A DNA stretch of 39,935 bases from a virus (IMGVR_UViG_2623620502_000008); one strand, 5' to 3'; positions 5,391 through 38,920 are shown, numbered from the stretch's first letter. Numbers and translations: made by a program. Notes: generated from the sequence alone by a model not told the origin.

Positions 5391-5435
5391 TGGTGGAGCT
5401 GGCGGGAGTTGAACCCGCGTCCGAAATTCCTACAT
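5391..5435. repeat. attL: 45-bp direct repeat identical to the 3' end of ssrA (displaced tmRNA 3' fragment)
   Basis: tggtggagctggcgggagttgaacccgcgtccgaaattcctacat occurs at 5391..5435 and at 38876..38920; flanks diverge immediately outside. Confidence 0.85.
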
Positions 5436-5520
5436 ACCATTTTCACTATAGCAAAAACATTAACTTGCGTTTAAAATCAGTAAGTTAGTATTATCTTGTG
5501 TTTGTCCGTTTTACTCATTT

Positions 5521-6567
5521 TTAATGTTCTGTCGCCAATCTGTCGCCATTGTAGGTCAACGAAGGTTGAGCCTTCCCTTTGTTTGTTACAATTTCATCAA
5601 AGATAGCTGGATTATTATCTTTCAGTAATCTTGCTAGTATAATGATTTGCCCAGACGAGCCATCATCCTTGAATGAAAGGAAATTATCGGTAATATCAAG
5701 AATATCAATGGTAAATTTGAAGTAGGTTTCAATTGTATCGCCAAGTTCAATGCTGGACATGAAGTTAGTAATCATTTCATATCCATCAAAGTATAAAGTT
5801 GCATGTTCATTTAACTCCATGGGAGTTAGGCAAAGCATTCGATTAAGTTCGGATAAGTGTTTTTCTATTGAATGAAGAGATTGCATTTGACGGATTAAAA
5901 CTTCGGCAAACTGAGAGCCACGATTAGATGAATGTATCTTCTCTAGGTTTTTTAGTATATCAACCCAGTGATTATTTACTTCACGTATGTATTCTTTATC
6001 TGTATTTTTAGGCCGTCCCTTCTCTGGTGAGCTATTTATGAAAATATATCTATATAGATGTATTGGGTAGTTTATTTTATAACTTATCTCTTTAGTACCA
6101 TAATGACGTTCGCGTTTAATGGTTTTGTTAGGTAAATTGGTGAAATAATCAGTAACGAACTTTAAATGGCTATAGTAGCTATCAGATAGATTCTTTTGCT
6201 TGGTTTCCTCAATTTGTCGGTTTGTTTGAACTGTGCGGTGTATGTTTGCTACGACAGCAACAAATGGTATGGACAAAGAAAGTAAGGCGATAGGAAGCTT
6301 GCTAATTGCAATGAAATTATTAAAGCCCTCACTATCAAATTGAGGGGAATGTCCAAGCCAGGAAAATATACCAAAGTATATCGCTGAAAATACAGGAATC
6401 CTAAGTGATTGTTTAAATAAGTATTGACTTGTTAATGGCCTTTCATCCATGTTAAAGCCTTTTTTTGATACGCATAGATATAATTCAAGGCATATATATA
6501 AAAAATATATTATGATAAGTAAGTACGATATCCATGGGTATTGTTGGATATAGTTATTAACAAGCAC
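5521..6567 (-). CDS. membrane-anchored hypothetical protein (3 N-terminal TM helices plus about 230-aa soluble domain); prophage cargo between int and attL
   Basis: 348-aa ORF, AT-rich; start overlaps the int stop by 11 nt (same strand, suggesting translational coupling); TM segments YLLIIIYFLYICLELYLCV, IPVFSAIYFGIFSWL, IALLSLSIPFVAVVANI. Confidence 0.5.
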   Translation of the reverse strand: MLVNNYIQQYPWISYLLIIIYFLYICLELYLCVSKKGFNMDERPLTSQYLFKQSLRIPVFSAIYFGIFSWLGHSPQFDSEGFNNFIAISKLPIALLSLSIPFVAVVANIHRTVQTNRQIEETKQKNLSDSYYSHLKFVTDYFTNLPNKTIKRERHYGTKEISYKINYPIHLYRYIFINSSPEKGRPKNTDKEYIREVNNHWVDILKNLEKIHSSNRGSQFAEVLIRQMQSLHSIEKHLSELNRMLCLTPMELNEHATLYFDGYEMITNFMSSIELGDTIETYFKFTIDILDITDNFLSFKDDGSSGQIIILARLLKDNNPAIFDEIVTNKGKAQPSLTYNGDRLATEH

Positions 6568-7597
6568 TTTCTAATTTTCTCCATCCAAGGTTAGCAAGAG
6601 GATTTTTGGTTACAGCATCTTCCAGATGGTCGGGAGCGAAGTGGGCGTAAATCATTGTCATTTTTATATCGACATGGCCCAGAATATCGCGCAGCACCAG
6701 TATGTTTCCGCCATTCATCATAAAGTGACTTGCAAATGTATGTCGTAATACGTGTGTGCATTGCCCTTCTGGTAGCTCGATACCAGCTCGTTTTACCGCA
6801 CGTTCAAAAGCTTTCCTACAAGGTGTAAATAATTTTCCCCTATTCTTAGGCAGTTCTTCATATAAATCCTTTGAAATAGGCACTGTTCGGTTTTTCTTTC
6901 CTTTAGTCTTGGTATAAGTGATACGGTATTTTGATACCTGATGACTCTGTAGGTTTTCGGCTTCGCTCCAGCGTGCGCCGGTGGCCAAGCATATTTTTGC
7001 AATCATCAGCAGACTGGGGCTTTGAGAATCAGCACAGGCATCCAGCAGACGTTTAATTTCTTCCGGGGTCAGGAACGCCAATTCACCCTCAGCAATTTTA
7101 AATGTTGGCAGCCCAGCAAGCGGGTTGGGGGCTGACCAGTGGCCCAGCTTTTTCAGTGTACCAAAAACAGATGATAGGTTGCGCTGTTCAAGATTTACCG
7201 TGCGGGGCTTAACGGGCGACATAAGCGTGCCATCTTCATTTCGTACTTCACCTTTTAACCGTGCTTCGCGGTATTTCGTAAACTCACCAGCTGTCAGTTC
7301 TGAGGCGATGGGATCGCCTAGACCATTACAGATAATTCTAAGTTTCGCCATGAGGCGCTTGGGGTCTGCGAGTGTTTGACCATACAGGGAATACCACAGC
7401 TCAATTAATTCTGATAGATGTCGCCGATCTTCCTTTTCCCCTAGCCATGGTTTTTTGTTCACTTCTTCCATTGTGAAGCTTTCAAACGCAATGGCTTCGC
7501 CTTTGGTAGCAAATTGCTTACGCACGCGCTTACCATTGCGTCCATTGGGATAGCACTCACACAACCATTTTCCGTTCGGCTGTTTTCTGATGGTCAT
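6557..7597 (-). CDS. int: phage integrase (P2/186-type tyrosine recombinase)
   Basis: 346-aa ORF; catalytic region motifs ATGARWSE, HVLRHTFAS, and MIYAHF; position next to cI and near attL. Confidence 0.9.
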   Translation of the reverse strand: MTIRKQPNGKWLCECYPNGRNGKRVRKQFATKGEAIAFESFTMEEVNKKPWLGEKEDRRHLSELIELWYSLYGQTLADPKRLMAKLRIICNGLGDPIASELTAGEFTKYREARLKGEVRNEDGTLMSPVKPRTVNLEQRNLSSVFGTLKKLGHWSAPNPLAGLPTFKIAEGELAFLTPEEIKRLLDACADSQSPSLLMIAKICLATGARWSEAENLQSHQVSKYRITYTKTKGKKNRTVPISKDLYEELPKNRGKLFTPCRKAFERAVKRAGIELPEGQCTHVLRHTFASHFMMNGGNILVLRDILGHVDIKMTMIYAHFAPDHLEDAVTKNPLANLGWRKLESAC

Positions 7598-7600
7598 AAG

Positions 7601-8239
7601 TTAGAGGTTCTTGATTACTTTGACTGCACGTCCTACGACTTCCACATCATCTACAGAACATTCAAATGAAGTGTCATCTTGGTTAACTACTATTTTGTTT
7701 CCGGGTATGCGCGCAATTTTGACGATGCTTTTAACTCCGTCCATATCGACTAACCAGAAGCCATTACTGACTTGTTTAACAGACGTATCCACTACAAAGC
7801 TATCATTAGCTGTTTTAACAAATAAAGCGTTGGATGAGTCACCATCGAGCAGGCTGCTATCAAGAAGAATTTCATCACTTGGCTGCAGTTCGCCGTTCTT
7901 CAGTTCAACACGTTTGATGCTAGGAGCAACGATCTTAGAAAGTGGTCTTACAGTGACGGGAGGTTCATTTTTGAGATTTGTTTCTTCGTTCTCACACGCA
8001 TACATATCTCCTTGACCAGTAGCCAGCCATAGAAGGGAAACTCCTGTTTCAAGGGCACATTGGATTACCCATTCGGCAGGAAAGCTATCCCTTAAGTATC
8101 TGTTAGCCATAGTGCTTTTTGATACTTCCAGATGTTCGCAGAGCTGCTGTCGTGAGCTGAAGTTGTAAGCCTTAATAAGCCTATTAATCGCATCGCGCCC
8201 ACCACTATCATTCCCCGCCTTGATTAAACTCATAATCAA
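7601..8239 (-). CDS. cI: CI-like immunity repressor (N-terminal HTH)
   Basis: 212-aa ORF; HTH-like QQLCEHLEVSKSTMANRYL near N-terminus; divergent from apl/cII as in phage 186. Confidence 0.75.
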   Translation of the reverse strand: MIMSLIKAGNDSGGRDAINRLIKAYNFSSRQQLCEHLEVSKSTMANRYLRDSFPAEWVIQCALETGVSLLWLATGQGDMYACENEETNLKNEPPVTVRPLSKIVAPSIKRVELKNGELQPSDEILLDSSLLDGDSSNALFVKTANDSFVVDTSVKQVSNGFWLVDMDGVKSIVKIARIPGNKIVVNQDDTSFECSVDDVEVVGRAVKVIKNL

Positions 8240-8349
8240 ACCTCTTGATGCATATAAAAAGCGATCTTAATATCCATTCATGGTTTGAAAAGCAAAACCA
8301 AACCACATAAAACAAGATAAAACGAAACCAAACTAAGAGATACTGCACT
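8240..8349. promoter_or_regulatory. lysis/lysogeny switch intergenic region (face-to-face or divergent early promoters and operators, inferred)
   Basis: 110-bp AT-rich gap between divergently oriented cI (minus) and apl (plus); position only, individual -35/-10 elements not resolved. Confidence 0.35.
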
Positions 8350-8592
8350 ATGAGTACTGATATTTCAATTCGTGTACCAAAAGAGATGGCAACGCCTGCT
8401 GAGTTCGCGGAATGGGAAGGTATCTCCCGCGGCTCCGTGTATCAAAAAATTCACCATGGTCAGCTTGCTAAATACATGGTCAAGAAAGAAAAAAACAAAG
8501 GCCGCGTAAGCCTGCGTTATTTAATGTACAAAACCGATCAGGTCCGTGAATCCCTCGGTCATTCCAACTTCCGCGTCATTGTTGGTAAGTAA
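8350..8592 (+). CDS. apl: Apl/Cox-like excisionase and transcriptional regulator
   Basis: 80-aa basic protein directly opposite cI and upstream of cII, as in 186. Confidence 0.55.
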   Translation: MSTDISIRVPKEMATPAEFAEWEGISRGSVYQKIHHGQLAKYMVKKEKNKGRVSLRYLMYKTDQVRESLGHSNFRVIVGK

Positions 8593-8624
8593 GTTCAATT
8601 ATGAGAACTTTCTAAGGGGGTAGC

Positions 8625-9134: not shown

Positions 9135-9141
9135 GGTGTTT

Positions 9142-9438
9142 ATGCTGACGAAAGAACCATCATTTGCATCGCTGCTGGTAAAACAAAGCCCGGCAATGCA
9201 CTACGGTCACGGCTGGATCACGGGTGAGGATGGAAAACGCTGGCATCCATGTCATTCACAAGATGAATTGCTGTCTGAATTGACCACGAGGAAACGGAGA
9301 AAGTCCAAATGTATGGGGCAGAAAGTGAAGTGGTTTATCAGTTTCGTTACAGAGGGGAGAGTTATTCAGTACCTGAAGATGATTTGCTCTGTTGCTATCC
9401 GTCATTGTCGGGCGATGGCAGTTACTTTTTCACGTTAA
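9142..9438 (+). CDS. small early phage protein (hypothetical); 3' part overlaps next ORF in another frame, true stop uncertain
   Basis: ATG at 9142 directly after cII; first ~55 residues look protein-like, remainder overlaps 9309..9533. Confidence 0.3.
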   Translation: MLTKEPSFASLLVKQSPAMHYGHGWITGEDGKRWHPCHSQDELLSELTTRKRRKSKCMGQKVKWFISFVTEGRVIQYLKMICSVAIRHCRAMAVTFSR

Positions 9439-9533: not shown

Positions 9534-9555
9534 CTGCGTTTGGGGGATATGAAGT

Positions 9556-9897: not shown

Positions 9898-9964
9898 CCA
9901 ACTAATGAAATTAATGGCGTAAACCCGCCGGGCATCCCTTTATCTAAATTCAGGAGAATTGATT

Positions 9965-13690: not shown

Positions 13691-13782
13691 TTACGCGGGT
13701 TAACAATTCGTGCTCTTAATAATACCAGGCATATCAGGCTGATGAACGTAAAAAAACGTTTTACATCAGTATGATTATTATA

Positions 13783-13802
13783 TACTGTAAATATAAACAG
13801 TG
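13783..13802. promoter_or_regulatory. LexA box (SOS operator) upstream of the Tum/DinI-like module
   Basis: TACTGTAAATATAAACAGTG = CTGT-N8-ACAG palindrome matching the LexA consensus, about 40 bp upstream of the ORF starting at 13844. Confidence 0.6.
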
Positions 13803-13843
13803 GTTATGCATACAGTATTGCTTGTGGTGTCATAGGAGGAAAG

Positions 13844-14032
13844 ATGCAGGACTATTTTTTGGAGTCTTTGAAGCTCCAGCGCATTGATTTTTTTCTTAAG
13901 CTTGTAGCGGCTAGTGAGTGTAGTGATGAAGAGAAGGGGCTGGCTTTGCAGTGGGTTTCTGAACTGACAGATGAACTCATGGCAAAAATCAGAACCCACG
14001 AATACAACCGCTCAATGGATGTCATCAGCTGA
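13844..14032 (+). CDS. small protein, possible Tum-like antirepressor (N-terminal portion equivalent)
   Basis: 62-aa ORF with aggagga RBS; LexA box upstream; followed by DinI-like ORF, the arrangement of 186-like SOS-inducible antirepressor modules. Confidence 0.4.
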   Translation: MQDYFLESLKLQRIDFFLKLVAASECSDEEKGLALQWVSELTDELMAKIRTHEYNRSMDVIS

Positions 14033-14042
14033 GGTGACTTTT

Positions 14043-14276
14043 ATGCGCATTGAAATAATGATCGATAAAGAGCAGAAGATTAGCCAGTCTACCCTGGATG
14101 CCCTTGAATCCGAGCTTTACCGCAATCTGCGCCCCCTGTATCCCAAAACGGTAATTCGTATCCGCAAAGGTAGCTCTAACGGTGTGGAACTGACCGGACT
14201 GCAACTGGACGAAGAAAGAAAACAAGTGCTGAAAATTATGCAGAAGGTGTGGGAAGACGACTGCTGGCTGCATTGA
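14043..14276 (+). CDS. DinI-family protein (Tum C-terminal-like / DinI-like)
   Basis: 77-aa ORF starting MRIEIMIDKEQ... and ending ...WEDDCWLH, resembling DinI-family proteins (MRIEV... N-terminus, acidic aromatic C-terminus); gaggtg RBS upstream. Confidence 0.7.
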   Translation: MRIEIMIDKEQKISQSTLDALESELYRNLRPLYPKTVIRIRKGSSNGVELTGLQLDEERKQVLKIMQKVWEDDCWLH

Positions 14277-14391
14277 TAGGTTTCGTTTGTAATGAGTCAT
14301 GTTTTTTGAGTCCGATAGTAGACAGCTAGAGGGATAAATGATTAATAGATAGATTAAACATAGTGATGGGCGTAAAATCGCGCGCATTTTA

Positions 14392-15306
14392 TTGGCAACG
14401 GATCTGAACTCAATGGCGGATAAGACTCAATCAGTAAGTATTGTGTATCAAGGCAAAGCTCTCGACGATCATAAGATGGATATTCTTTCGTTTGCGAAAA
14501 GTTTGCAGGGGCTAGGTGAGGCTATCTACTCTGCAAATGAGATTGTAAACGGAGGGCGAGACATTGAAGTTAACGTTGACGCTGAATTGATAGCCGGTTC
14601 CTTTGGGTTTGATATTGAGGTTGTACAACATCTAGCTAATGCTAAAGATGTTGTACAAATTTTAGGTTTGTCAGCCATTCCTTTAGCCGTTGGCGGTGCT
14701 ACAGTTTTAGAGGTTCTCAAGAAGCTTAACGGGCGTAAGATCGACATAGTCGAGAAAGCTAACGGTAGTGACAAAGTTAAGCTGAAAGTCGATGGTGAAG
14801 AGATTGTTTGCTCTGAAGATGTCGAAAAAATCGTTAATGCCCCAGAGATTCGTAAGGCTGTTGACGCGTTTGTCAGACAGCCTCTGTTACAAGATGGTAT
14901 CGACAATTTTGTGGTAAAAAAATCGCGCACCTCTAAGAAAGAAATCCTCAAAATTCATAAAGATGAGGCAGAAGAGTTTAAGTCGCCAAAAGTTCTCTTT
15001 GAAACCAAAGAAGAAGTTGACGAATTTGAAACAACCGTGACATTCGTTTCGGCGCATACTGACAAAAAAAGTGGCTGGCGTGTTGAGTTTGGCGGTGAAA
15101 AGCGCAATGTCAGAATGGAAGATAATGAGTTCATCAAGCTTGTTACTGGACCAGACGCCCCCAAAATTTTTGGCGAATTGTTTGCTGTGAAGATGAAGAA
15201 AATTGTGAAAGATTCCGGTGGCCAGGTAGACGAAAAGTTATCGATCATCAAAGTGGGTCGACACTTTGCCGCCAAAGATAGAAAAATAAAACCTGATGCG
15301 GATTAA
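14392..15306 (+). CDS. hypothetical soluble protein (cargo; first gene of 3-gene cluster)
   Basis: 304-aa Lys/Glu-rich ORF with no motif I recognise (alternative start 14413); at the position of P2 tin/old accessory genes (after A, before cos). Confidence 0.45.
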   Translation: MATDLNSMADKTQSVSIVYQGKALDDHKMDILSFAKSLQGLGEAIYSANEIVNGGRDIEVNVDAELIAGSFGFDIEVVQHLANAKDVVQILGLSAIPLAVGGATVLEVLKKLNGRKIDIVEKANGSDKVKLKVDGEEIVCSEDVEKIVNAPEIRKAVDAFVRQPLLQDGIDNFVVKKSRTSKKEILKIHKDEAEEFKSPKVLFETKEEVDEFETTVTFVSAHTDKKSGWRVEFGGEKRNVRMEDNEFIKLVTGPDAPKIFGELFAVKMKKIVKDSGGQVDEKLSIIKVGRHFAAKDRKIKPDAD

Positions 15307-15308
15307 AA

Positions 15309-15572
15309 ATGTCTATAGATATTAGTGTGTTAGGATGGTTGGGGCTGCTTGTTGCAGCTCCAGCTATATTTATAGGTGCTAGAGTGGCTATACGTAGCCT
15401 GCTCGATCGAGTTATTGTCGAAACAAAAGTTTCTATCACTTATACTGATGCAAACAAAAATGTCTATAAAACAAATATTTATATAAACAATGATGATGAG
15501 TTAATAAAGCTCATCGATGATATAGCAGAGAAAAATAAGCGTGAGAGGAAGGAGTCAGCCTCTCATGCCTGA
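15309..15572 (+). CDS. small membrane protein (single N-terminal TM helix), hypothetical
   Basis: 87-aa ORF starting 3 nt after previous stop; TM segment LGWLGLLVAAPAIFIGARVAI. Confidence 0.4.
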   Translation: MSIDISVLGWLGLLVAAPAIFIGARVAIRSLLDRVIVETKVSITYTDANKNVYKTNIYINNDDELIKLIDDIAEKNKRERKESASHA

Positions 15573-15981
15573 ACAAAAGAAAACAAGCGGTAAAGCAGTC
15601 GGTGTTACAGGTGGCGGCGGTGTAGGCCTTTTCCTAATAAAGCTGGCTAGCTTCATTACAGATCCAACATGGAAAGACCTTTACATTGCTTCAATACCGA
15701 TGGTGTCAATTCTTTTAAGCGAAGTTTTTACTTTTGCATGGACGATTTATGCTGTTGATCCGCAAGAAATCAAACTGAAAAGGCGGTTGAAGGCTCTGAA
15801 GAAGCAAGCCGAAGCAGTTTTAAATGCACCATCGTCCCCTGTTTCTCCAGAAATGCGAGAGAAAGCGCAGGCTCGTTACGACGTGATCTGTGGAATTGAA
15901 ATGGGAATTTACCCCCTCTCAATTGTAAATACGCTAGATGGAAAAGTATCCCCCACAGCGCAAACGCCGGACGTTAAATAG
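15565..15981 (+). CDS. small membrane protein (2 predicted TM helices), hypothetical
   Basis: ATG at 15565 with aggaaggag RBS, overlapping previous stop; Gly-rich then hydrophobic segments (GVGLFLIKLASFI; IPMVSILLSEVFTFAWTIYAV). Confidence 0.4.
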   Translation: MPEQKKTSGKAVGVTGGGGVGLFLIKLASFITDPTWKDLYIASIPMVSILLSEVFTFAWTIYAVDPQEIKLKRRLKALKKQAEAVLNAPSSPVSPEMREKAQARYDVICGIEMGIYPLSIVNTLDGKVSPTAQTPDVK

Positions 15982-16044
15982 CAGTTTCTACTTTGCATGT
16001 CTATGCTGCATGAAATCGCATGATCGTTTGAGGATCGTTTTTGC

Positions 16045-16073
16045 AAAAGCCCGCCAGAACTGGCGGGCTTTTG
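16045..16073. terminator. rho-independent terminator-like hairpin (A-tract/GC stem/T-tract)
   Basis: aaaagcccgccag-aa-ctggcgggcttttg, perfect 9-bp GC-rich stem flanked by A and T runs, downstream of the 3-gene cluster. Confidence 0.5.
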
Positions 16074-16117
16074 CGTAGAGCATGCATCTGCATGAAAACC
16101 ACTACATAAAGCGGGCA

Positions 16118-16136
16118 GGCGTGGCGGGGATACGAG
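16118..16136. other. candidate cos (cohesive-end) site of the prophage
   Basis: ggcgtggcggggatacgag; first 13 nt match my recollection of the P2/186 cohesive-end sequence (GGCGTGGCGGGGA...); located in the non-coding stretch between the late-accessory region and the portal side. Confidence 0.3.
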
Positions 16137-16224
16137 CGCGCGCATTGAGTTAAAATTTCTTGAGTTGATGAAAATAAGATGTATTTTAATTTGGCACAGA
16201 AAAACCTAATAACTCACAAGGATA

Positions 16225-17160
16225 ATGATAATAATGCAAATAGTTTCCATCATAAATTATAAAGGTGGCGTTGGTAAAACAACAGTTACGTCTAATTTAG
16301 CCGCTGAATTAGCATTCCGAGGAAAGAATGTTTTAGTTCTGGATATGGATGCTCAGGCAAGCCTGACATTTTCGTTTCTAACTCCCGATTATTGGGATGA
16401 ACATCTTAAAAATGAAAGGACCATTAAAAACTGGTTTGATTGTATTAGTCAGGGAGAGCAAACAATGCCTCTTTCGACTCTAAGAGTACGACCTGAACCT
16501 GTTAATAGTAGATTTGATAGAAAAGGTGGATGTTTGGATTTAATATCTTCCCACCTCGGGTTGATAAATGTTGATCTTGAGCTTGCGACTCTTCTAGGAG
16601 GGGCTAGCCCCAGTCAAACTCAAAAAAAATATCTTAAAGTTCATGGTAAACTTAGAGAGGAACTTCAAATACTAGCTGACGAAATGAATTATGATGTTGT
16701 TTTAATTGATTGTCCACCTAACTTTAATATCGTAACAAAAAATGCTTTGATTGCATCAGATAAGATTTTGATACCAGCAAAACCTGATTATTTGTCAACG
16801 CTAGGTATTGATTATTTAAAAAGAAGCGTAGATTCTCTAGTTACAGACTATAATTTCTATGCCGATAAAGATGAAGATTATGAAAGGGTATCTCCTGAGA
16901 TTCTCGGAGTAGTTTTTACTATGATTCAAATTCATTCAGAACAACCTATTGCCGCGCAAAGACAGTATATTGCGCAGACAAAACGTCTAGGTGTTCCCGT
17001 ATTTGATGCTATTTTTAGGGAGAATAAAACTATCTTTGCTGATGCCCCTAGAGATGGAATTCCTGTAGCATTAATTGGCTACTCGCATTCAACTCACTCT
17101 TCTATTGTAGGAGAGATTGAGGATTTTGTTGATGAATTCCTTCAAAAGATTGGAGAATAA
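16225..17160 (+). CDS. ParA/MinD/Soj-family P-loop ATPase (deviant Walker A)
   Basis: 311-aa ORF; NYKGGVGKTTVTSNLA deviant Walker A near N-terminus (likely start at ATG 16234), DMDAQ (A'-like) and VLIDCPP (Walker B-like); strongly AT-rich. Confidence 0.7.
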   Translation: MIIMQIVSIINYKGGVGKTTVTSNLAAELAFRGKNVLVLDMDAQASLTFSFLTPDYWDEHLKNERTIKNWFDCISQGEQTMPLSTLRVRPEPVNSRFDRKGGCLDLISSHLGLINVDLELATLLGGASPSQTQKKYLKVHGKLREELQILADEMNYDVVLIDCPPNFNIVTKNALIASDKILIPAKPDYLSTLGIDYLKRSVDSLVTDYNFYADKDEDYERVSPEILGVVFTMIQIHSEQPIAAQRQYIAQTKRLGVPVFDAIFRENKTIFADAPRDGIPVALIGYSHSTHSSIVGEIEDFVDEFLQKIGE

Positions 17161-17162
17161 AA

Positions 17163-17558
17163 GTGAGTAAAGCTAAAACTTTAACTGTGCTATTTCGTGA
17201 ATTACAAGATGCAGTTCTTGAACTCAATGAAGGGGAATTGGAAAAAATTATTTCAGGCGAGTATCAATTCGTCCTTAAGGTAGTTAAAAAACGTAATAGT
17301 ACTGGTGCAAAGATAAGTTCAGTAGATAATTTTAGCTATAACGAATTGCTTGTTTTACTTAACCAGTGTGAGTCAAGAGAACAAGGTTGCGAGCTTTTGT
17401 CGCGTGAGCTTAAGACTAAATCTGAGTTTGAAAAATTCGCTCGTCATGTCGAGGTCGCTGTAATGAAAAGCGATAAACTCGAGAAAATTAGAGATAATAT
17501 TATTGAGTCGACAGTAGGTGCTAAACTCCGTTCTGATGCTATTCAGAATAAAAAGTAA
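17163..17558 (+). CDS. hypothetical protein, partner of ParA-like ATPase (helical, charged)
   Basis: 131-aa ORF with GTG start 2 nt after ParA-like stop, ggagaa RBS; no recognisable motif. Confidence 0.45.
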   Translation: MSKAKTLTVLFRELQDAVLELNEGELEKIISGEYQFVLKVVKKRNSTGAKISSVDNFSYNELLVLLNQCESREQGCELLSRELKTKSEFEKFARHVEVAVMKSDKLEKIRDNIIESTVGAKLRSDAIQNKK

Positions 17559-17562
17559 TTAA

Positions 17563-18616: not shown

Positions 18617-20379
18617 AAAATCTCCACAATATTGCTGGTATTGGCGGACTCGCCCTGCAGCGGTTCGTTAAACAGTGCGTGCATTGTTGCCCAGGCCAGA
18701 TCGGCATGGCTGGCTTCTTCGCTGCGGCTGGCTTCATAGGTTGGGCGGTTGCCGCTGGCGGTGGTGGCGCGACGGATTGCCATAAATGACTGCGCTATGT
18801 CGGTGTGTCCGGCGTCAAACTCCAGACGACGGTGACTGATAATGTCGTAGGCCTTGAGTACCAGGGCGTTTTTAACGTTGGGGTTGTAGACAAACTCCCG
18901 GACGGCTGGAAAAAACGCTTTCACGTTCTCGTAAACCCCGTGGCCGACACCTGTCGAGTCGATGCCGATGTAGGTCACGTTGTACTGCTCGGTCAGTTTT
19001 TTGATGGCGTCAGCCTGGGCGCGGAAGTCCATCCCGCGCCACTGGTGACGCTCAAGAATGCGGAACTTACCACCCGGCACGGCTGGCGGTGCCACCACCA
19101 CGCATCCGGCGCTGTCGCCGTTTTGCGTACCTTTTGCCGGGTCATAACCGATCCACACTTCGCGCCAGCCAAACGGGCGCAGCGCCAGTGCATGAAAGTC
19201 GGTCCAGACTTCCCAACTGTCCACCATGCACGCCTGCAGCTCGCTGAGCGGAAACACGGACGCGAGATCGTCCACAAACTCGCACATCAGCAGGTTCTGG
19301 TATTCGTCCGGGCTGTACTCCATGCGTAGCTGGTCGAGGTCGAACAGGTTACAGCCGCCGCGCACCGCATCTTCCACGGTGACTATCTGGCGGTATTGCC
19401 CGTCTGCGCACAGCAGGCCGGGGGCCAGATTGCTGTGGGACAGGTCGATGTCCACCTTATCGGCTTTGTTGCGCCCACGGTTGAACAGTGCACCGGACCA
19501 GAACGGATAAGCACTGTGTGTCAGGCTGGATGGCGTGGAAAAATAGGTCTGTCGCCATTTCTTGTGAATAGCCATACCGGAAGCCACTTTGCGCAGTTCC
19601 TGGAATTTTGGTATCCAGAAATATTCATCCAGATACAGGTTGCCGTGGTAACTCTGGGCAGTGCGGGCATTGGTGCCGAGGAAGTAAAGCGTGGCCCCGT
19701 TAGGAAGCACCATCGGATCGCCTTTCAGCTCCACCTCCACTTCTTTGGCAAAGTCGATGATGTACTGCTTAAAGACGTGGGCCTGTGCCTTACTGGCGGA
19801 AAGGAAAATCTGGTTACGTCCGGTCAGCAGGGCGTCAATCAGGGCTTCACGGGCAAAATAGAAGGTCGCGCCGATCTGGCGTGACTTCAGCAGGTTGCGG
19901 ATGCGGTTGGTTTTTCCGGCTTCCCACCAGTGGCGCTGGTAGTTGAACATGGAGGAATGGAAGATTTCTTCCAGCTTCTCAATCTGTTCATCGGTGAAAA
20001 CATTCTTTTCAGGCTGACGGCGCGGGCCTTTGTTGCGGTTGGCGACGTTAGGGTTTAAGTCGGCTTCGTTGCCGCCATTGTTAAACTTGCCGATCCGCGC
20101 GTGGCGCTCAGACTGGCGCGCCAGCAGGTCAATCTCTTTGAAATCTTTCCCTTCTTTGTGCTCCTTCATGATGAGCTGGCAGTAGCGTGCGGCGGTGGTG
20201 AGCTGCATCTGATCCAGCGGCCCATAGTCACCCCACTTGTCGCGTTTTTTCCAGCTGTGAACGGTTGCAACTTTCTCGCCCAGCATTTCAGCAATGCGGG
20301 CGACGCGGTATCCCTGAAAGTACAGCAGCATGGCCTGCCGACGGGGATCGAGATCTGCGGGTGTCAGTGTGGTGTTCAT
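18613..20379 (-). CDS. P: terminase large (ATPase) subunit (P2 gpP-like)
   Basis: 588-aa ORF divergent from O-N-M capsid operon, as in P2. Confidence 0.85.
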   Translation of the reverse strand: MNTTLTPADLDPRRQAMLLYFQGYRVARIAEMLGEKVATVHSWKKRDKWGDYGPLDQMQLTTAARYCQLIMKEHKEGKDFKEIDLLARQSERHARIGKFNNGGNEADLNPNVANRNKGPRRQPEKNVFTDEQIEKLEEIFHSSMFNYQRHWWEAGKTNRIRNLLKSRQIGATFYFAREALIDALLTGRNQIFLSASKAQAHVFKQYIIDFAKEVEVELKGDPMVLPNGATLYFLGTNARTAQSYHGNLYLDEYFWIPKFQELRKVASGMAIHKKWRQTYFSTPSSLTHSAYPFWSGALFNRGRNKADKVDIDLSHSNLAPGLLCADGQYRQIVTVEDAVRGGCNLFDLDQLRMEYSPDEYQNLLMCEFVDDLASVFPLSELQACMVDSWEVWTDFHALALRPFGWREVWIGYDPAKGTQNGDSAGCVVVAPPAVPGGKFRILERHQWRGMDFRAQADAIKKLTEQYNVTYIGIDSTGVGHGVYENVKAFFPAVREFVYNPNVKNALVLKAYDIISHRRLEFDAGHTDIAQSFMAIRRATTASGNRPTYEASRSEEASHADLAWATMHALFNEPLQGESANTSNIVEIF

Positions 20380-24560: not shown

Positions 24561-24938
24561 ATGAAAAAGAAAGTAATCAGCGGGCTGTTTCTGATGTTAT
24601 GGATGGCGCTGTTGATCGCAGCAATGGTGTATCCACAGGGGATTTTTCCGGTACTGGCAGCGTCCGGTGTCTGGGTAGCCTGTCTGCTGACATGGGCGGT
24701 AATTCCGGTAGCACTGGCTGCGTTAATTAAGAACGGCCCGCTCTGGCAGGAGTTGAGGGCATCTTTGCTAAAGACCATTACCCGAAAAGAAAACGTATTT
24801 ATCAGCTGGGTGATGCGATTGCTGATTGTCGTAAGTTTCGCCTGGACGGGGTGGGCTATTACCCTGGTCTTTTATCTGCTGACCGTTATTGCCTTCTGGA
24901 TGATCCGTAATCAGATTGCGCAACAGGTAGCAGCATGA
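24561..24938 (+). CDS. lysA: LysA-like membrane protein (lysis timing/antiholin-like)
   Basis: ATG 24561; about 126-aa protein with 4 hydrophobic segments after endolysin as in P2. Confidence 0.55.
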   Translation: MKKKVISGLFLMLWMALLIAAMVYPQGIFPVLAASGVWVACLLTWAVIPVALAALIKNGPLWQELRASLLKTITRKENVFISWVMRLLIVVSFAWTGWAITLVFYLLTVIAFWMIRNQIAQQVAA

Positions 24939-25363
24939 ACCGGTTGCTGCTGGTTGTGCTGGCGTTATTACTGGCGGCGCTGGGCTGGCAGACGTGGCGG
25001 CTGGCTGATGCCAGCCAGACCATCAGCACGCAGGCAGACGAGCTTCGGAGCAAAAGCCAGGCACTGGCAAAGAGCAACAGCCAGCTTATCAGCCTGTCCA
25101 TTCTGACTGAAACCAATAACCGGGAGCAGGCGCGGCTCTATGCCGAAGCAGAACAGACCAGTGTACTGCTGAGACAACGACAACACCGGATTGAGGAACT
25201 GAAACGTGAGAACGAGGATTTACGCCGCTGGGCTGATACTCCTTTGCCTGCTGACATTATCCGGCTGCGGGAACGCCCCACACTCACCCGAGGTGCAGCT
25301 TACCGTCAGTGGTTGTCCGCGAGTGACGCCGTGTCGGCTGGGGCAGGCAGCGCCGCGCACTAA
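24935..25363 (+). CDS. lysB: LysB, Rz-like inner-membrane spanin
   Basis: 142-aa ORF, N-terminal TM helix then coiled-coil region. Confidence 0.65.
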   Translation: MNRLLLVVLALLLAALGWQTWRLADASQTISTQADELRSKSQALAKSNSQLISLSILTETNNREQARLYAEAEQTSVLLRQRQHRIEELKRENEDLRRWADTPLPADIIRLRERPTLTRGAAYRQWLSASDAVSAGAGSAAH

Positions 25364-28227: not shown

Positions 28228-28825
28228 TCTGCTGCCATCGGGGTCAACTTCACTGGAGCGCCGACTGGCGCAGACCTGTAGCGGGATTTCTGATCTGCAG
28301 GTGCCGCTGCGTGACTTGTGGAATCCGGCTACCTGCCCGGTCAGCTTCCTGCCTTATCTCGCCTGGGCGTTCTCTGTGGATCGCTGGGACGAAGGCTGGA
28401 CAGAAAGCGTCAAGCGCCAGGTGGTGAAGGATGCTTTTTATATTCATCAGCATAAAGGGACCACCAGTGCCGTGCGGCGGGTGGTGGAGCCGTTCGGCTT
28501 TCTGATCCGCATTATTGAGTGGTGGCAGACCGGAGAGGCACCGGGCACGTTTCGTCTGGATATCGGCGTGCAGGACCAGGGCATCACTGAAGATACCTAT
28601 CTGGAACTTGAGCGGCTGATAAGCGATGCCAAACCATGTAGCCGTCACATGATCGGCATGTCCATCAATCTGCAGACCAGCGGTCCGCATTGGGTGGGGG
28701 CCGCCAGCTATCTTGGCGAAGAAATCACGATCTATCCGTATATCAACGAAACAATTATTTCCGGCGGCACCGCGCATGAAGGTGGGGCGGTCCATGTTAT
28801 TGACACAATGAGAGTGAATCCATGA
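28220..28825 (+). CDS. I: tail protein I
   Basis: 201-aa ORF. Confidence 0.75.
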   Translation: MNSLLPSGSTSLERRLAQTCSGISDLQVPLRDLWNPATCPVSFLPYLAWAFSVDRWDEGWTESVKRQVVKDAFYIHQHKGTTSAVRRVVEPFGFLIRIIEWWQTGEAPGTFRLDIGVQDQGITEDTYLELERLISDAKPCSRHMIGMSINLQTSGPHWVGAASYLGEEITIYPYINETIISGGTAHEGGAVHVIDTMRVNP

Positions 28826-30552
28826 GCACAAAATTTTATACCCTGCTGACGGATATTGGCGCGGCGAAACTTGCCAGCGCCGCCGCGCTCGGTGTGCCTT
28901 TAAAAATTACCCATATGGCGGTCGGCGATGGCGGCGGAACATTGCCAACGCCGGACGCAAAGCAGACAGCATTGGTAAATGAGAAACGCCGGGCTGCGCT
29001 GAATATGCTCTATATCGACCCGCAGAACAGCAGCCAGATTATTGCCGAACAGGTGATCCCAGAAAACGAGGGCGGTTGGTGGATACGTGAAGTGGGCCTG
29101 TTTGATGAGTCCGGGGCATTGATTGCCGTGGGCAACTGCCCGGAAAGCTATAAGCCACAACTGGCTGAAGGCAGCGGGCGCACCCAGACCGTGCGCATGG
29201 TGCTGATTACCAGCAGTACGGACAATATCACCCTGAAAATCGACCCTGCTGTCGTGCTGGCAACCCGTCATTATGTAGATCAACAAATAGAAATTCATGA
29301 GCAATCGCGCCGCCATCCTTCTGCGTCTTTGACAGAAAAGGGATTTGTACGTCTGTATAGCGGTGTGGAAAGCAATGATGAAACAGTCGCTGCAACGCCA
29401 AAAGCAGTGAAAATAGCGATGGATAATGCCAGCGCCAGACTGGCAAAAGACCGCAATGGTTCTGATATTCCCAATCCGGCACTGTTTGTTCAGAATCTGG
29501 GATTGAAAACGACTGTTGATAAAGCTGCATCAGCGATTCAGCCAGGAGATTATGGAATTGGCCTGGCTTATCTGAAAACCATGGGAACCAAATCGCAATT
29601 TTTTGCTTATGGTACAGCTGTCGGATATCCAGAAGTGCCAACACATGGTGCTGGTTTCCAGGCCTGTTACAACGACAATCGACGTGCACAGATTTATGTC
29701 GCTAATGATGGCAAGATGTACTGTCGATTCAGCATGTTATCGAAAATTGCCGATGATGAAACACCGTGGAATCAGGTGTTCACCAGTGCACATTATCCAG
29801 AAGCATCAGTGAGTGTTAAAGGAATGGTGCAACTGGGGAACGATGTAAACAGCGTGTCAGAAAATGTTGCGGCGACATTGAAAGCGGTAAAAATTGCGAT
29901 GGACAACGCCAGCGCGAGACTGGCAAAGGACCGCAATGGTGCTGATATTCCTGACCCGACTTTGTTTATTCAGAATCTGGGACTTAAACCGACGGTTGAT
30001 AAGGCTGAAAGTGCTCTGCAACAGGGAGCATACGGAATCGGTAGCAATAATAACTACGAAATGGGTGAGGTTTCACAGTTTCTTGCATATTCAGGTAATG
30101 CAGATGAAGTGCCATCGAATGGTGCAGGTTTTCAGGCTGCGTATAACAAGAACAGACGCGCGCAGATTTTCATCACCGGAGCAGGGGAAATGTATCACCG
30201 TTTCAGCGGCTCTGATACGGTTAAAGACAATACAACACTATGGCGTCGGGGTGTTTGTGAAGATGAATTTTCATTTGGCAGCAATTATCACCGAATAACT
30301 GGCGGTGTGCTGAAGCAGTTTTTTAACAGTTATTTTTCCGGGGCAACTGGTGTGGTGAATAAAGAGTATCAGGTGAATTTTCCGACACCATTTGCCCGTC
30401 AGTGCTGGTACGTGATCCCCGTTTTCCGTTCGTCACACGGTGGGAGTGTTGAGGGGGTCGCCATTACAGCTATTACTGCAACTGGCTTTACTCTGAGCAT
30501 CACCGGAGATAACGGTGGATGGAATATTGGGTTTATTGCGGAGGGGGTCTGA
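28822..30552 (+). CDS. H: tail fiber protein H (contains an internal roughly 350-bp duplication)
   Basis: 576-aa ORF; N-terminal MSTKFYTLLTDIGAAKLA typical of P2-like tail fibers; duplicated block noted separately. Confidence 0.8.
   Translation: MSTKFYTLLTDIGAAKLASAAALGVPLKITHMAVGDGGGTLPTPDAKQTALVNEKRRAALNMLYIDPQNSSQIIAEQVIPENEGGWWIREVGLFDESGALIAVGNCPESYKPQLAEGSGRTQTVRMVLITSSTDNITLKIDPAVVLATRHYVDQQIEIHEQSRRHPSASLTEKGFVRLYSGVESNDETVAATPKAVKIAMDNASARLAKDRNGSDIPNPALFVQNLGLKTTVDKAASAIQPGDYGIGLAYLKTMGTKSQFFAYGTAVGYPEVPTHGAGFQACYNDNRRAQIYVANDGKMYCRFSMLSKIADDETPWNQVFTSAHYPEASVSVKGMVQLGNDVNSVSENVAATLKAVKIAMDNASARLAKDRNGADIPDPTLFIQNLGLKPTVDKAESALQQGAYGIGSNNNYEMGEVSQFLAYSGNADEVPSNGAGFQAAYNKNRRAQIFITGAGEMYHRFSGSDTVKDNTTLWRRGVCEDEFSFGSNYHRITGGVLKQFFNSYFSGATGVVNKEYQVNFPTPFARQCWYVIPVFRSSHGGSVEGVAITAITATGFTLSITGDNGGWNIGFIAEGV
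29385..30210. repeat. internal direct duplication within tail fiber gene H (two roughly 350-bp copies, about 29385..29735 and 29865..30210)
   Basis: Nucleotide and protein blocks recur, e.g. AATPKAVKIAMDNASARLAKDRNGSDIPNPALFVQNLGLKTTVDKA vs AATLKAVKIAMDNASARLAKDRNGADIPDPTLFIQNLGLKPTVDKA, each followed by ...NGAGFQA.YN.NRRAQI... Confidence 0.7.
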
Positions 30553-36377: not shown

Positions 36378-36859
36378 TGATGGTGCTGGGATTGTACGTG
36401 TTTATGCTGCGCACCGTTCCGTATCAGGAACTGCAGTATCAACGCAGCTGGCGACATGCGGCAAACAGCCGGGTAAACCGTCGTCCGTCCACGCAGTTTC
36501 TGGGACCGGACAACGACATGCTGACGCTTTCCGGTGTTCTTATGCCGGAGATAACGGGCGGCAGGCTGTCGTTGCTGGCTCTGGAGCAGATGGCAGAACA
36601 GGGAAAAGCATGGCCCCTGATTGAAGGCAGCGGCACGATTTACGGCATGTATGTGATTGAGGGACTGAATCAGACTAAAACGGAGTTCTTCCGCGACGGT
36701 ATGCCGCGCAGGATTGAGTTCACCCTGTCGCTAAAACGCGTGGATGAATCCCTGTCCGATATGTTCGGTGATCTCAGTGCGCAACTGAATAATCTGCAGG
36801 GAACGGCAACATCTGCCTTAAGCGATATCAGTAAAACGGTGGGAGGGCTGCTGTCGTGA
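36374..36859 (+). CDS. U: tail protein U
   Basis: 161-aa ORF. Confidence 0.8.
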   Translation: MMMVLGLYVFMLRTVPYQELQYQRSWRHAANSRVNRRPSTQFLGPDNDMLTLSGVLMPEITGGRLSLLALEQMAEQGKAWPLIEGSGTIYGMYVIEGLNQTKTEFFRDGMPRRIEFTLSLKRVDESLSDMFGDLSAQLNNLQGTATSALSDISKTVGGLLS

Positions 36860-37956
36860 ATTTCAGCTCTGAACTGCTTAACAAAGGCAACAAAACTCCG
36901 GCATTCAGCATCAGTATTGAAGGCAGGGATATCACCACTGTGCTGGACAACCGCCTGATGGGGCTGACGCTGACGGATAACCGGGGCTTTGAAGCGGACC
37001 AGCTTGATCTGGAGCTGGACGACGCCGATGGAAAAATCGTGCTGCCGCGCCGTGGTGCGGTCATTACGCTGGCGCTGGGCTGGAAGGGGCAGCCGCTTTT
37101 CCCGAAAGGGGCATTCACGGTGGACGAGATTGAACACACTGGCGCACCGGACCGCCTGACTATCCGGGCGCGAAGTGCTGATTTTCGTGAAACGCTGAAT
37201 ACCCGTCGTGAAAAGTCGTGGCACAAGACCACCGTTGGGGAAGTGGTGAAGGAAATAGCTGCGCGGCACAAACTGAAGATGGCATTGGGTAAAGACCTGT
37301 CAGATAAACCCGTGGAACATATAGACCAGACCAATGAGAGTGACGGCAGTTTTCTGATGCGGCTGGCGCGACAGTACGGTGCCATCGCGTCGGTGAAAAA
37401 TGGCAATCTGTTATTCATCCGGCAGGGACAGGGCAAAAGCGCCAGCGGTAAACCTCTGCCGGTGATCACTATCACACGCAAGGACGGCGACAGTCACCGC
37501 TTTACCCTGGCAGATCGCGGAGCCTATACGGGCGTAATTGCCAGTTGGTTGCATACCCGCGAACCCGCGAAGAAAGAAAGCACCACGGTGAAGCGTAAGC
37601 GCAGGACCGCAAAGCAGAAGAAAGAGCCGGAAGCGAAGCAGGGCGATTACCTGGTGGGTACGGATGAAAACGTGCTGGTACTTAATCGCACTTATGCCAA
37701 CCGGAGCAACGCTGAACGGGCAGCGAAAATGCAGTGGGAACGCCTGCAACGCGGCGTTGCGTCATTCTCGCTACAACTGGCGGAAGGTCGGGCAGATCTC
37801 TACACGGAAATGCCAGTGAAAGTCAGTGGCTTTAAACAGCCGATAGATGATGCGGAATGGACCATTACGACTCTGACACATACCATCAGCCCGGATAACG
37901 GTTTTACAACCAGTATTGAACTCGAAGTGAAGATTGATGATCTTGAAATGGAATAA
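36856..37956 (+). CDS. D: tail protein D (late control gene D)
   Basis: 366-aa ORF. Confidence 0.8.
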   Translation: MNFSSELLNKGNKTPAFSISIEGRDITTVLDNRLMGLTLTDNRGFEADQLDLELDDADGKIVLPRRGAVITLALGWKGQPLFPKGAFTVDEIEHTGAPDRLTIRARSADFRETLNTRREKSWHKTTVGEVVKEIAARHKLKMALGKDLSDKPVEHIDQTNESDGSFLMRLARQYGAIASVKNGNLLFIRQGQGKSASGKPLPVITITRKDGDSHRFTLADRGAYTGVIASWLHTREPAKKESTTVKRKRRTAKQKKEPEAKQGDYLVGTDENVLVLNRTYANRSNAERAAKMQWERLQRGVASFSLQLAEGRADLYTEMPVKVSGFKQPIDDAEWTITTLTHTISPDNGFTTSIELEVKIDDLEME

Positions 37957-38024
37957 AGTGTTCTCAATATTGATATTTTGTGTATCATTACAATGATTCT
38001 GATAGCAAAGGTAGGGATCTGGAT

Positions 38025-38243
38025 ATGATGAATTGTCCGAAGTGTGGTCATGCGGCGCACACAAGGAGCAGTTTTCAAGTAACAGAAAGCACCAAAGAGC
38101 GTTACTGCCAGTGCCAAAATATTAACTGCGGGAGCACTTTTGTTACCCATGAAACAGTGGTCCGGTTTATTGTGACACCTGCATTGATTGCTACAGCCCC
38201 TCCACATCCATTGCCAGGTGGTCAGGGGCATATGAATTTTTGA
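38025..38243 (+). CDS. ogr: Ogr/Delta-family zinc-finger late transcription activator
   Basis: MMNCPKCGHAAHTRSS...KERYCQCQNINCGSTF...HPLPGGQ matches the Ogr Cys4 pattern (ORF track start at 37980 is probably too far upstream). Confidence 0.85.
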   Translation: MMNCPKCGHAAHTRSSFQVTESTKERYCQCQNINCGSTFVTHETVVRFIVTPALIATAPPHPLPGGQGHMNF

Positions 38244-38251
38244 GAAAGAGA

Positions 38252-38272
38252 ACCTGCTACGGCAGGTTTTTA
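38252..38272. terminator. terminator hairpin shared by convergent ogr and BRCT-like gene
   Basis: acctgc-tacg-gcaggttttt immediately after the ogr stop. Confidence 0.5.
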
Positions 38273-38752
38273 TTCATCTGGGATCTCACCCGTTTCAAGA
38301 AAATGTATAAAGCCAGGCTCATCTATGATGATTGTGCCTTTCATCCTGGCTGCCGATACTTTTGATGGGCCTGCATTGTAACCGCAACAGAGCATCTGAA
38401 GGCTTTGGGTTACAGAGGTTCTTACCGTTAATCCTTGTTCATTCGCCTTATCAACCAATCTTTCTTTATCTGCTTTCTTAAATCCGGTGAAGCACACATC
38501 GAATGTATTTTTTTTCGGACCAGACTGCTTAGTGAGATGTGAGTAGTTTTCGGGGAGGAATGACGCGCATTCCTGAATGGCTTGTTCTGGTGAATCGTAC
38601 TGTTTAAGAATGCGGTCTTTTCGGAAGGTTTTTATTCGATCGGTGTTCTTACAAATGCCCTGTATATGATTTTCGCTATAACTGATGCTCTGTACTGAGT
38701 GAACACCGATACGACCATTTGCATTGATGTAAACAAAGTGAAGTTCTTCCAT
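38270..38752 (-). CDS. hypothetical protein with C-terminal BRCT-like domain; prophage cargo between ogr and attR
   Basis: 160-aa ORF; C-terminal DVCFTGFKKADKERLVDKANEQGLTVRTSVTQSLQMLCCGYNAGPSKVSAARMKGTIIIDEPGFIHFLETGEI resembles BRCT domains of NAD-dependent ligase type. Confidence 0.5.
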   Translation of the reverse strand: MEELHFVYINANGRIGVHSVQSISYSENHIQGICKNTDRIKTFRKDRILKQYDSPEQAIQECASFLPENYSHLTKQSGPKKNTFDVCFTGFKKADKERLVDKANEQGLTVRTSVTQSLQMLCCGYNAGPSKVSAARMKGTIIIDEPGFIHFLETGEIPDE

Positions 38753-38875
38753 GTGAAACCTCTTTGCATGATTTCAAGATGGCGACAGGCAAGATGGACG
38801 CAAAAGTCTGTCGCCATTTTGCCGCCACTACCAAAGAAAAAGGGGCTACGCTTTCACGTAACCCCTTGATTTATT

Positions 38876-38920
38876 TGGTGGAGCTGGCGGGAGTTGAACC
38901 CGCGTCCGAAATTCCTACAT
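38876..38920. repeat. attR: 45-bp core identical to attL, forming the functional 3' end of ssrA
   Basis: Exact copy of 5391..5435. Confidence 0.85.

Follow-up and report, generated by a model that had tools for sequence, protein, structure and literature searches.

A phage of the Fels-2/186 type has very probably integrated at the 3' end of the tmRNA gene ssrA in Escherichia coli VG12A2, displacing the truncated remnant of an older island. The stretch of DNA analysed (the window, 39,935 nucleotides) is identical in sequence to positions 1132301-1172235 of the VG12A2 chromosome (NZ_CP128592.1); its features are listed in Table 1. A 45-bp sequence, TGGTGGAGCTGGCGGGAGTTGAACCCGCGTCCGAAATTCCTACAT, is present in it as two exact copies in direct orientation (5391-5435 and 38876-38920), and the identity breaks at the first adjacent base on either side. 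No match to this repeat is expected in shuffled sequence, and the other direct repeats in the window are at most 29 nt long and at most 89% identical, with the exception of an internal tail-fibre repeat. The last 45 nt of ssrA, at its 3' end, form the right copy; the gene is placed on the minus strand at 38876-39238 by both ARAGORN and RefSeq and encodes the tag peptide ANDENYALAA (ARAGORN). The original prediction that the ssrA 3' end occurs twice and brackets a prophage is borne out by the exactness of the copies and by the P2-family DNA between them.

Table 1. Features of the window (positions counted from its first nucleotide).
Feature	Position	Strand	Basis or details
Island cargo: HK-like GHKL ATPase	1-1719	+	
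Island cargo: Response_reg_2 protein	1721-3469	+	
Island cargo: 138-aa hypothetical protein	3541-3957	-	
P4-type tyrosine integrase, full-length, orphan without distal att	3996-5225	-	Pfam Arm-DNA-bind_3, Phage_int_M, Phage_integrase
Distal att core, displaced ssrA 3' fragment (island / core / phage int side)	5391-5435		Repeat and att alignment
P2-family prophage (Peduoviridae; Fels-2/186-type), 33,440 bp	5436-38875		Annotation; nucleotide identity to P2-family phages
Prophage cargo between att core and int; membrane protein (2-TM)	5521-6450	-	phrog_17460
Int-side arm: two adjacent 11-bp arm-type direct repeats	5530-5551	+	TGTCGCCAATC and TGTCGCCATTG
Prophage tyrosine integrase, Fels-2 type	6557-7597	-	Pfam Int_N and Phage_integrase
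186-type CI repressor	7601-8233	-	Pfam Phage_CI_repr and Phage_CI_C; annotation
Small HTH protein at the Apl/Cox position	8350-8592	+	Annotation; Fels-2 Apl position; weak HTH_17 match only
LexA-type box (13785-13800), then 62-aa ORF and DinI-like gene (14043-14276)	13785-14276	+	Box CTGTAAATATAAACAG
Prophage cargo between ogr and att core; small BRCT-like protein	38270-38752	-	phrog_2561, weak Pfam BRCT
Ogr-side arm	38779-38830		Inverted copy 38779-38788; adjacent direct repeats TGTCGCCATTT and TGCCGCCACTA 38809-38830
Terminator-like hairpin with T-tract, phage DNA	38840-38867	-	12-pair stem, 6 GC pairs
SsrA-proximal att core (phage ogr side / core / ssrA body)	38876-38920		Repeat and att alignment
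ssrA (tmRNA gene), intact	38876-39238	-	ARAGORN, RefSeq annotation, 100% identical to E. coli W ssrA
smpB, chromosomal flank upstream of ssrA	39453-39935	-	Pfam SmpB E 1.5e-57; annotation

All four att sites could be reconstructed in a four-way att alignment. The attL junction (ogr side, core and ssrA) is present in 171 of 5426 genomes and the attR junction (island, core and phage int side) in 64 of the same 5426. When island, core and ssrA were joined into a synthetic junction, this was 100% identical to E. coli W and many other strains over 1116 nt; at a coverage of at least 80%, the phage-free junction is contained in 970 of the 5426 complete genomes. In E. coli W, which lacks the prophage, the genes of this remnant adjoin ssrA directly, and their protein accessions are identical. 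On the phage side, the attP of phage Cartapus is contiguous and consists of the ogr-side arm, an identical 45-bp core and the int-side arm; in the Fels-2 record a split attP is annotated, the int-side half of which shares the boundary between ...CTACAT and ACCATTTT. Arm repeats of the 186 type were found on both prophage arms. Those at 5530-5551 resemble the 186-type arm consensus tgccGCCActt (PMC3448106), and Fels-2 has TGCCGCCAAAA TGCCGCCATAA at the place matching the int-side arm repeats. The terminator-like hairpin lies 8 nt 3' of the ssrA end and is conserved in the Cartapus attP. The ssrA of the lysogen is 100% identical to that of the non-lysogen E. coli W and attP holds the ssrA 3' end; the gene is kept intact, with a 3' end that the phage would supply, as had been anticipated.

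The DNA between the cores follows the P2 gene order (int, cI, apl, cII, fil, dam, A, hotspot, Q, P, O, N, M, L, lysis, tail, D, ogr). No P2-order gene is missing or of unusual length, and the late and structural set annotated in RefSeq is complete (Q, P, O, N, M, L, X, holin, lysis, R, S, V, W, J, I, H, G, FI, FII, E, E', T, U, D and ogr); a Pfam Ogr_Delta match lies in the prophage as well. Gene lysB is flagged as partial in RefSeq, yet an intact 142-aa ORF is present. The prophage shows 94-97% nucleotide identity to Klebsiella and Escherichia P2-family phages, including the free phage Cartapus, and its full-length Int shares 93% identity with that of Fels-2 and 94% with that of Cartapus. Its Fels-2-type tyrosine integrase and an attP that holds the ssrA 3' end along with 186-type arm repeats place it in the Fels-2/186 branch, and its regulatory region is of the 186 type, with CI, an Apl-position gene (Apl function by position only), CII, Fil and a Tum-like SOS module. 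The product of 8350-8592 is presumed, from its position, to be the excision directionality factor. CTGTAAATATAAACAG is the sole CTGT-N8-ACAG match in the window and the DinI-like gene at 14043-14276 matches Pfam DinI with an E value of 4e-21; judging from sequence, the LexA-type box, the 62-aa ORF and the DinI-like gene presumably constitute the Tum-like SOS induction module. Searches of the cargo genes against PADLOC, Pfam, PHROGs and PDB sequences returned no function, the only notable results being a PDC-S42 candidate-defence match and the weak BRCT match; for the 5521-6450 product, Pfam and PDB searches gave no match.

Fels-2 and SopEPhi from Salmonella enterica (Peduoviridae, Felsduovirus) have been reported to integrate into ssrA (PMC3448106). 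The VG12A2 prophage resembles them in its integrase and shares with Fels-2 a 186-type CI/Apl/CII/Fil regulatory region and an attP that carries the ssrA 3' end, the same int-side boundary and analogous paired arm repeats. It differs from Fels-2 in its host, E. coli, in the length of the identity block (45 bp, against a split attP of 24+23 bp in the Fels-2 record) and in the cargo on both sides of attP (5521-6450 and 38270-38752), which is absent from Fels-2. Its overall nucleotide sequence is closer to Cartapus and to Klebsiella P2-family prophages than to Fels-2. Escherichia phage Cartapus (OV696611; Peduoviridae, Elveevirus) is 94-95% identical over about 73% of the tested prophage part and likewise has the identical 45-bp core in a contiguous attP and the same BRCT-like ORF beside attP. 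However, Cartapus carries a RES-domain gene between attP and int, where the prophage encodes the 2-TM protein, and the gpA-gpQ hotspots of the two differ. We found no data contradicting Fels-2-type integration at ssrA. The term 'SsrAB' in a Salmonella prophage review denotes a two-component system, and that review held nothing relevant on tmRNA.

The left element is a 5.5-kb remnant consisting of an integrase gene and three cargo genes. Its P4-type integrase shows 48% identity, end to end, to IntA of CP4-57 from E. coli K-12. The start of the longest ORF, at 5267, is 124 bp away from the left repeat, and the RefSeq start, at which residue 1 aligns with residue 1 of IntA, is at 5225, 166 bp from the repeat; the predicted gap of about 120 bp is roughly right. 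The expectation that an integrase of this type normally abuts ssrA also held, as it does so in the 970 complete genomes with the phage-free junction. The cargo (1-3957) has a GC content of 32-35% and includes the GHKL ATPase/Response_reg_2 domain pair described in PMC8011034. The far end of the island, about 150 bp upstream of the last gene, is a deletion junction in the ygaQ amylase pseudogene; an IS3 occupies the island/ygaQ junction, and conserved chromosomal genes adjoin the ygaQ end. The IS3 is flanked by TTC and CGC, and hence by no target duplication. IS3 as the sole cause of the island truncation was rejected, because strain 2013C-4081 has the same ygaQ/island junction, 15 bp different, without IS3; the large ygaQ deletion is therefore independent of IS3 or older than it. 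Annotation and domain search revealed no excisionase, alpA or other mobility genes in the remnant, and the P4 satellite core genes (alpA, primase alpha, psu, delta, sid, cos) do not make up part of it. As in CP4-57, a P4-type integrase gene comes directly after ssrA, shares its orientation and has variable cargo next to it. Apart from the low integrase identity, CP4-57 is 22 kb in size, keeps a distal 14-nt ssrA fragment (psaA) and has alpA and yfjI, whereas the remnant has no distal fragment and lacks alpA, a primase and the other CP4-57 genes.

We propose that Campbell-type, integrase-mediated recombination took place between attP, in which arm-type repeats flank a 45-bp copy of the ssrA 3' end, and the chromosomal tmRNA gene at its 3' end, with the crossover somewhere within the 45-bp identity block. 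A crossover inside this block would regenerate ssrA, displace a core copy and push the downstream DNA off intact. The part of ssrA 3' of the crossover, together with the terminator-like hairpin, would then come from phage DNA, the displaced chromosomal 45 bp would come to lie at the int end of the prophage, at a distance of 33.4 kb, and the P4-type integrase gene, the 138-aa ORF and the HK-like/RR-like pair, formerly downstream of ssrA, would be shifted as a whole. Before the phage arrived, a deletion into ygaQ would have removed the far end of the remnant together with its distal att fragment. The prophage would be expected to excise alone, through Int and the Apl-like protein, because it alone has an att site at either end; such excision would yield an E. 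coli W-type locus in which the island stays fixed. We infer the chemistry of the recombination and the place of the crossover, as well as functional Int and Apl and SOS inducibility; phage mobility and the presence/absence pattern, rather than a dated phylogeny, are the grounds for reading the event as an insertion into a W-type locus instead of a precise loss from a lysogen.

The original prediction went further and took the prophage and the P4-type island for a true tandem array, whose members share ssrA cores and excise jointly or separately. Arrays have precedent at tDNAs: in Islander no target is more enriched than the tmRNA gene, newcomers displace older elements downstream of one tDNA, and 125 arrays of two or more are recorded (PMC4383910). 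The locus resembles such arrays in its successive elements downstream of ssrA: two integrase genes of different families, the island one with a full-length ORF, lie in the proper orientation (6557-7597, 3996-5225 and ssrA, all on the minus strand), and Islander counts at least two such genes downstream of one tDNA as an array. It also expects each member to have its own displaced tDNA fragment, however, and here the prophage alone has one, the older element having lost its own. In the 42 kb to the left of the window, no third core was found with the 45-mer or a 20-mer at up to 3 mismatches, or with the 15-nt terminal core in the correct orientation at up to 2 mismatches, the last search assuming a likeness to the terminal core (~15 nt) of CP4-57, an element with an integrase of only 48% identity. 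The sole 15-mer near-match, on the wrong strand inside gabD, was judged a chance occurrence. Moreover, the island ends at the ygaQ deletion junction with its IS3, beside conserved chromosomal genes, and it carries no mobility gene other than the integrase. The absence of a third core marks it as a degenerate remnant; together with the ygaQ deletion junction, it makes joint excision impossible here, only the prophage being att-bounded. A tandem array of two excisable elements is thus largely refuted, and we consider it very improbable.

A reversed order of events, with the P2-family phage first and the P4-type island later entering the displaced 45-bp fragment, is extremely improbable. That fragment does contain the terminal ~15 nt used by the CP4-57 integrase in K-12 and would in principle be a target, but in E. 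coli W intact ssrA is directly adjoined by an identical truncated remnant, and this type of integrase is so placed in 970 genomes. Of the 560 genomes with the remnant (1-5600), only 64 have the P2-family phage junction, and in strain E2865 a lambdoid prophage occupies the same slot beside the same remnant. A remnant without distal att or mobility genes could not, moreover, integrate as such. The phage-free junction in E. coli W, and the occurrence of the remnant with this prophage, without it or with a lambdoid one, uphold the predicted position of the prophage between ssrA and a pre-existing island. That the prophage is instead fixed and defective (cryptic), its cores being scars of a past integration that no longer allow excision, seems unlikely. 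The RefSeq annotation of lysB as partial would agree with this, but the P2-order genes are complete and of normal length, the identity to sequenced phages extends to the free phage Cartapus, the cores are exact with arm-type repeats on both arms, Int is full length and closely similar to known phage integrases, and the LexA box and DinI/Tum-like module are intact.

A prophage at ssrA that displaces an older island is a textbook arrangement, is found in dozens of E. coli genomes and is already known; ample documentation exists for phages that integrate at ssrA and for tandem arrays at tDNAs. Tandem arrays of islands at tRNA and tmRNA genes are reportedly treated by Williams ('Traffic at the tmRNA gene', cited in PMC4383910). 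The present result, with little reach beyond annotation, defines the ends of the VG12A2 prophage exactly (5436-38875), along with both att sites, and identifies the neighbouring island as a fixed remnant and not a second mobile element, which avoids over-calling a tandem mobile array. The locus also exemplifies the repeated use of ssrA as a landing site in E. coli, where the same remnant is accompanied by no phage, by a P2-family phage or by a lambdoid phage. The slots beside attP, the gpA-gpQ slot and the HK-like/RR-like pair are reasonable places to seek anti-phage genes.

It is also conceivable, if highly unlikely, that the full-length orphan P4-type integrase is still active and promotes or modulates recombination between the 45-bp copies, which could affect the stability of the prophage, or, as a resident enzyme, captures incoming integrase-less elements at ssrA. 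The remnant has no second arm of its own. Should the enzyme use a short terminal core like its K-12 relative, both 45-bp copies contain that core. The gene is retained beside ssrA, or beside the displaced fragment, in hundreds of E. coli genomes.

An exact 45-bp direct repeat, TGGTGGAGCTGGCGGGAGTTGAACCCGCGTCCGAAATTCCTACAT, is present at 5391-5435 and 38876-38920, confirming the repeat reported in the original prediction; identity stops at the first base past either end of both copies, and shuffled sequence gave no such 45-bp match. The copy at 38876-38920 is the final 45 nt of the tmRNA gene (ssrA), and the core, read directly from the sequence on the RNA strand, is made up of 17 nt lying 5' of the T arm, a T stem-loop with the sequence GCGGG TTCAACT CCCGC, the acceptor strand on the 3' side and ACCA. 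The whole window matches positions 1132301-1172235 of the E. coli VG12A2 chromosome (NZ_CP128592.1) at 100% identity.

A synthetic empty-site query joining island, core and ssrA (window 4800-5435 plus 38921-39400) finds E. coli W and numerous further genomes at 100% identity across its full 1116 nt, and in 970 of 5426 complete genomes a single location covers at least 80% of it. The W locus, from which the prophage is absent, runs glaH, amylase pseudogene, IS3, HK-like gene, RR-like gene, hypothetical gene, integrase, ssrA and smpB; its protein accessions are identical to those of the window. A synthetic attP query (window 38300-38920 plus 5436-6000) finds a contiguous match in the free Escherichia P2-family phage Cartapus, through the core and 115 bp of the int-side arm; the Cartapus attP has a homologue of the 160-aa ORF on one side and, on the other, a RES-domain gene adjoining int. 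When both window copies are aligned with W and Cartapus, the copy at 5391 has the W sequence on its left, the copy at 38876 has ssrA on its right and the remaining two flanks agree with the Cartapus attP; all four sequences share the identical 45 bp. The Fels-2 record is split within its annotated attP (24 + 23 nt), and the int-side half has the same boundary as here, ...CTACAT/ACCATTTT. The prediction that the prophage entered between ssrA and an already resident P4-type integrase island is therefore supported.

Features of the ssrA locus and its prophage (window positions unless another sequence is named)
Feature	Coordinates	Strand	Details
HK-like/RR-like gene pair	1-3469		32-35% GC
Full-length P4-type integrase	3996-5225	-	Arm-DNA-bind_3, Phage_int_M and Phage_integrase domains
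IS3	L001 40923-42180 (122-1379 bp left of window)		1258 bp; ygaQ/island junction
P2-family prophage	5436-38875		33,440 bp between the two cores; P2 gene order
Cargo gene between displaced core and prophage int	5521-6567	-	309-348 aa; phrog_17460 (unknown function)
Int-side arm	5530-5551		adjacent 11-bp direct repeats TGTCGCCAATC/TGTCGCCATTG
Prophage int	6557-7597	-	
186-type cI	7601-8233	-	
Other early/regulatory genes			Apl-position gene, cII, fil, dam, replication gene A
Low-GC cargo block	13700-17560		38-42% GC; between gpA and gpQ
PDC-S42 homologue	14413-15306		
ParA-like ATPase	16234-17160		
Late genes			portal, terminase, scaffold, capsid, lysis, baseplate, tail fibre, sheath, tube, tape measure, D, ogr
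160-aa ORF	38270-38752	-	between ogr and attP; phrog_2561, labelled 'DNA ligase'
Inverted arm-repeat copy	38779-38788		
Ogr-side arm	38809-38830		adjacent 11-bp direct repeats TGTCGCCATTT/TGCCGCCACTA
tmRNA gene (ssrA)	38876-39238	-	tag ANDENYALAA
smpB	39453-39935		upstream of ssrA

We propose that the Fels-2-type Int catalyzed Campbell-type integration at the ssrA 3' end, with the crossover somewhere within the 45-bp block, where identical sequences leave its exact position unreadable; ssrA is regenerated and its former 3' end now lies at the prophage's int end. Excision would presumably proceed via Int and the Apl-like protein and restore a W-type locus. A terminator-like hairpin with a T run lies 8 nt beyond the ssrA 3' end within phage DNA, indicating that the phage supplies the gene end, as had been predicted, together with its likely terminator. 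A further terminator-like site, at 5341-5327, belongs to the island. The 10-mer CTGTCGCCAW occurs five times in the window against an expectation of 0.19, and the arm repeats are similar to the consensus tgccGCCActt of 186-type arms (PMC3448106), with equivalent repeats present in Fels-2. The fifth copy of the 10-mer, CTGTCGCCAT, is inside the large terminase gene; the 25-nt stretch that contains it (19536-19560) shares 80% identity with the ogr-side arm (38795-38819), which may be due to chance.

The island integrase shows 48% end-to-end identity to IntA of CP4-57, the K-12 cryptic prophage adjoining ssrA. Beyond it are only a 138-aa ORF and the HK-like/RR-like pair (32-35% GC), followed left of the window by IS3 at a distance of ~120 bp, a truncated ygaQ-type amylase pseudogene, glaH, lhgO and gabDTP. 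Searches of the 42 kb left of the window with the 45-mer and a 20-mer (up to 3 mismatches) found no third ssrA fragment. Because the distal ssrA fragment of CP4-57, psaA, is just 14 nt, the 15-nt terminal core was also tried over the same 42 kb with up to 2 mismatches, and its sole match is on the wrong strand inside gabD. IS3 is flanked by TTC and CGC, with no target-site duplication at the ygaQ/island junction. Strain 2013C-4081 has the same junction free of IS3 and with 15 extra bp (L007 8985-9015), in place of which IS3 stands in VG12A2 and W; this IS3-free junction indicates that the deletion which took away the remaining island sequence with its distal att was independent of, or older than, IS3. 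The island integrase of 2013C-4081 is itself interrupted by IS1203. The left element is a fixed 5.5-kb remnant. Tandem arrays are established, with the tmRNA gene the most enriched target (PMC4383910). The further proposal of tandem elements excising jointly or separately is unsupported here, since no further core is present in the 42 kb to the left and the left element is a degenerate remnant, the outcome that the original prediction itself had named for an island with no further core.

Among the 5426 genomes, the remnant (window 1-5600 at ≥80% coverage) is found in 560, the IS3/HK-gene junction in 484, the island-core-phage junction (5150-5550) in 64 and the phage-core-ssrA junction (38700-39100) in 171. 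In E. coli E2865 (L008 20300-40272) a lambdoid prophage encoding an Arm-DNA-binding integrase of its own lies between ssrA and the same remnant, and just ~34 nt of core adjoin the island, indicating that a different phage family uses ssrA with a different identity block. Since the slot holds a lambdoid prophage in that strain, the ssrA locus is a landing site used more than once, and the remnant is its constant neighbour. The arrangement is an ordinary one, the exact junction being already in dozens of sequenced genomes; P2-family integration into ssrA (PMC3448106), reported for Fels-2 and SopEPhi, and tDNA regeneration by attP are already established.

The prophage shows 94-97% nucleotide identity to Klebsiella and Escherichia P2-family phages, and its integrase shares 93% identity with Fels-2 Int and 94% with Cartapus Int. 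The window has a single LexA-type box (CTGT-N8-ACAG), CTGTAAATATAAACAG at 13785-13800. It immediately precedes a 62-aa ORF and a DinI-like gene (module span 13785-14276), an arrangement that we take to match the Tum antirepressor module under SOS control in phage 186. This resemblance suggests that the prophage is SOS-inducible and makes mitomycin C a sensible inducer; induction and excision are both predictions.

Between gpA and gpQ, the low-GC block occupies the known P2 defence hotspot (PMC9122126). PDC-S42, a candidate defence protein in PADLOC, has a homologue here (E 9e-44), alongside two small ORFs and the ParA-like ATPase with a 131-aa partner. In the remnant, the HK-like protein is a GHKL ATPase (HATPase_c and HEF_HK) and the RR-like protein combines Response_reg_2 with an uncharacterised C-terminal part of ~400 aa; they form a predicted two-component-like, paraMORC/R-M-associated pair (PMC8011034). 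The pair, present in ~560 E. coli genomes, has no PADLOC match and adjoins the P4-type integrase, the position of the int-psu defence hotspot in P4-like satellites (PMC9122126).

Cargo genes without assigned function flank attP on either side. The product of the int-side gene has hydrophobic segments at its N terminus and no Pfam or PDB match; the same slot holds the RES-domain gene in Cartapus and is empty in Fels-2, and these differing contents indicate a variable cargo slot between attP and int. The 160-aa ORF, common to Cartapus and missing in Fels-2, scores weakly for a BRCT domain (Pfam E 1e-3) and has a weak PDC-S48 match. Within the tail-fibre gene (28822-30552) is a 239-nt direct repeat (29323-29561 and 29803-30041, 71% identity, 480 nt apart). 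RefSeq annotates lysB as a partial pseudogene (24935-25282), whereas an uninterrupted 142-aa ORF spans 24935-25363; the partial flag is probably an annotation artefact from the overlapping spanin genes.
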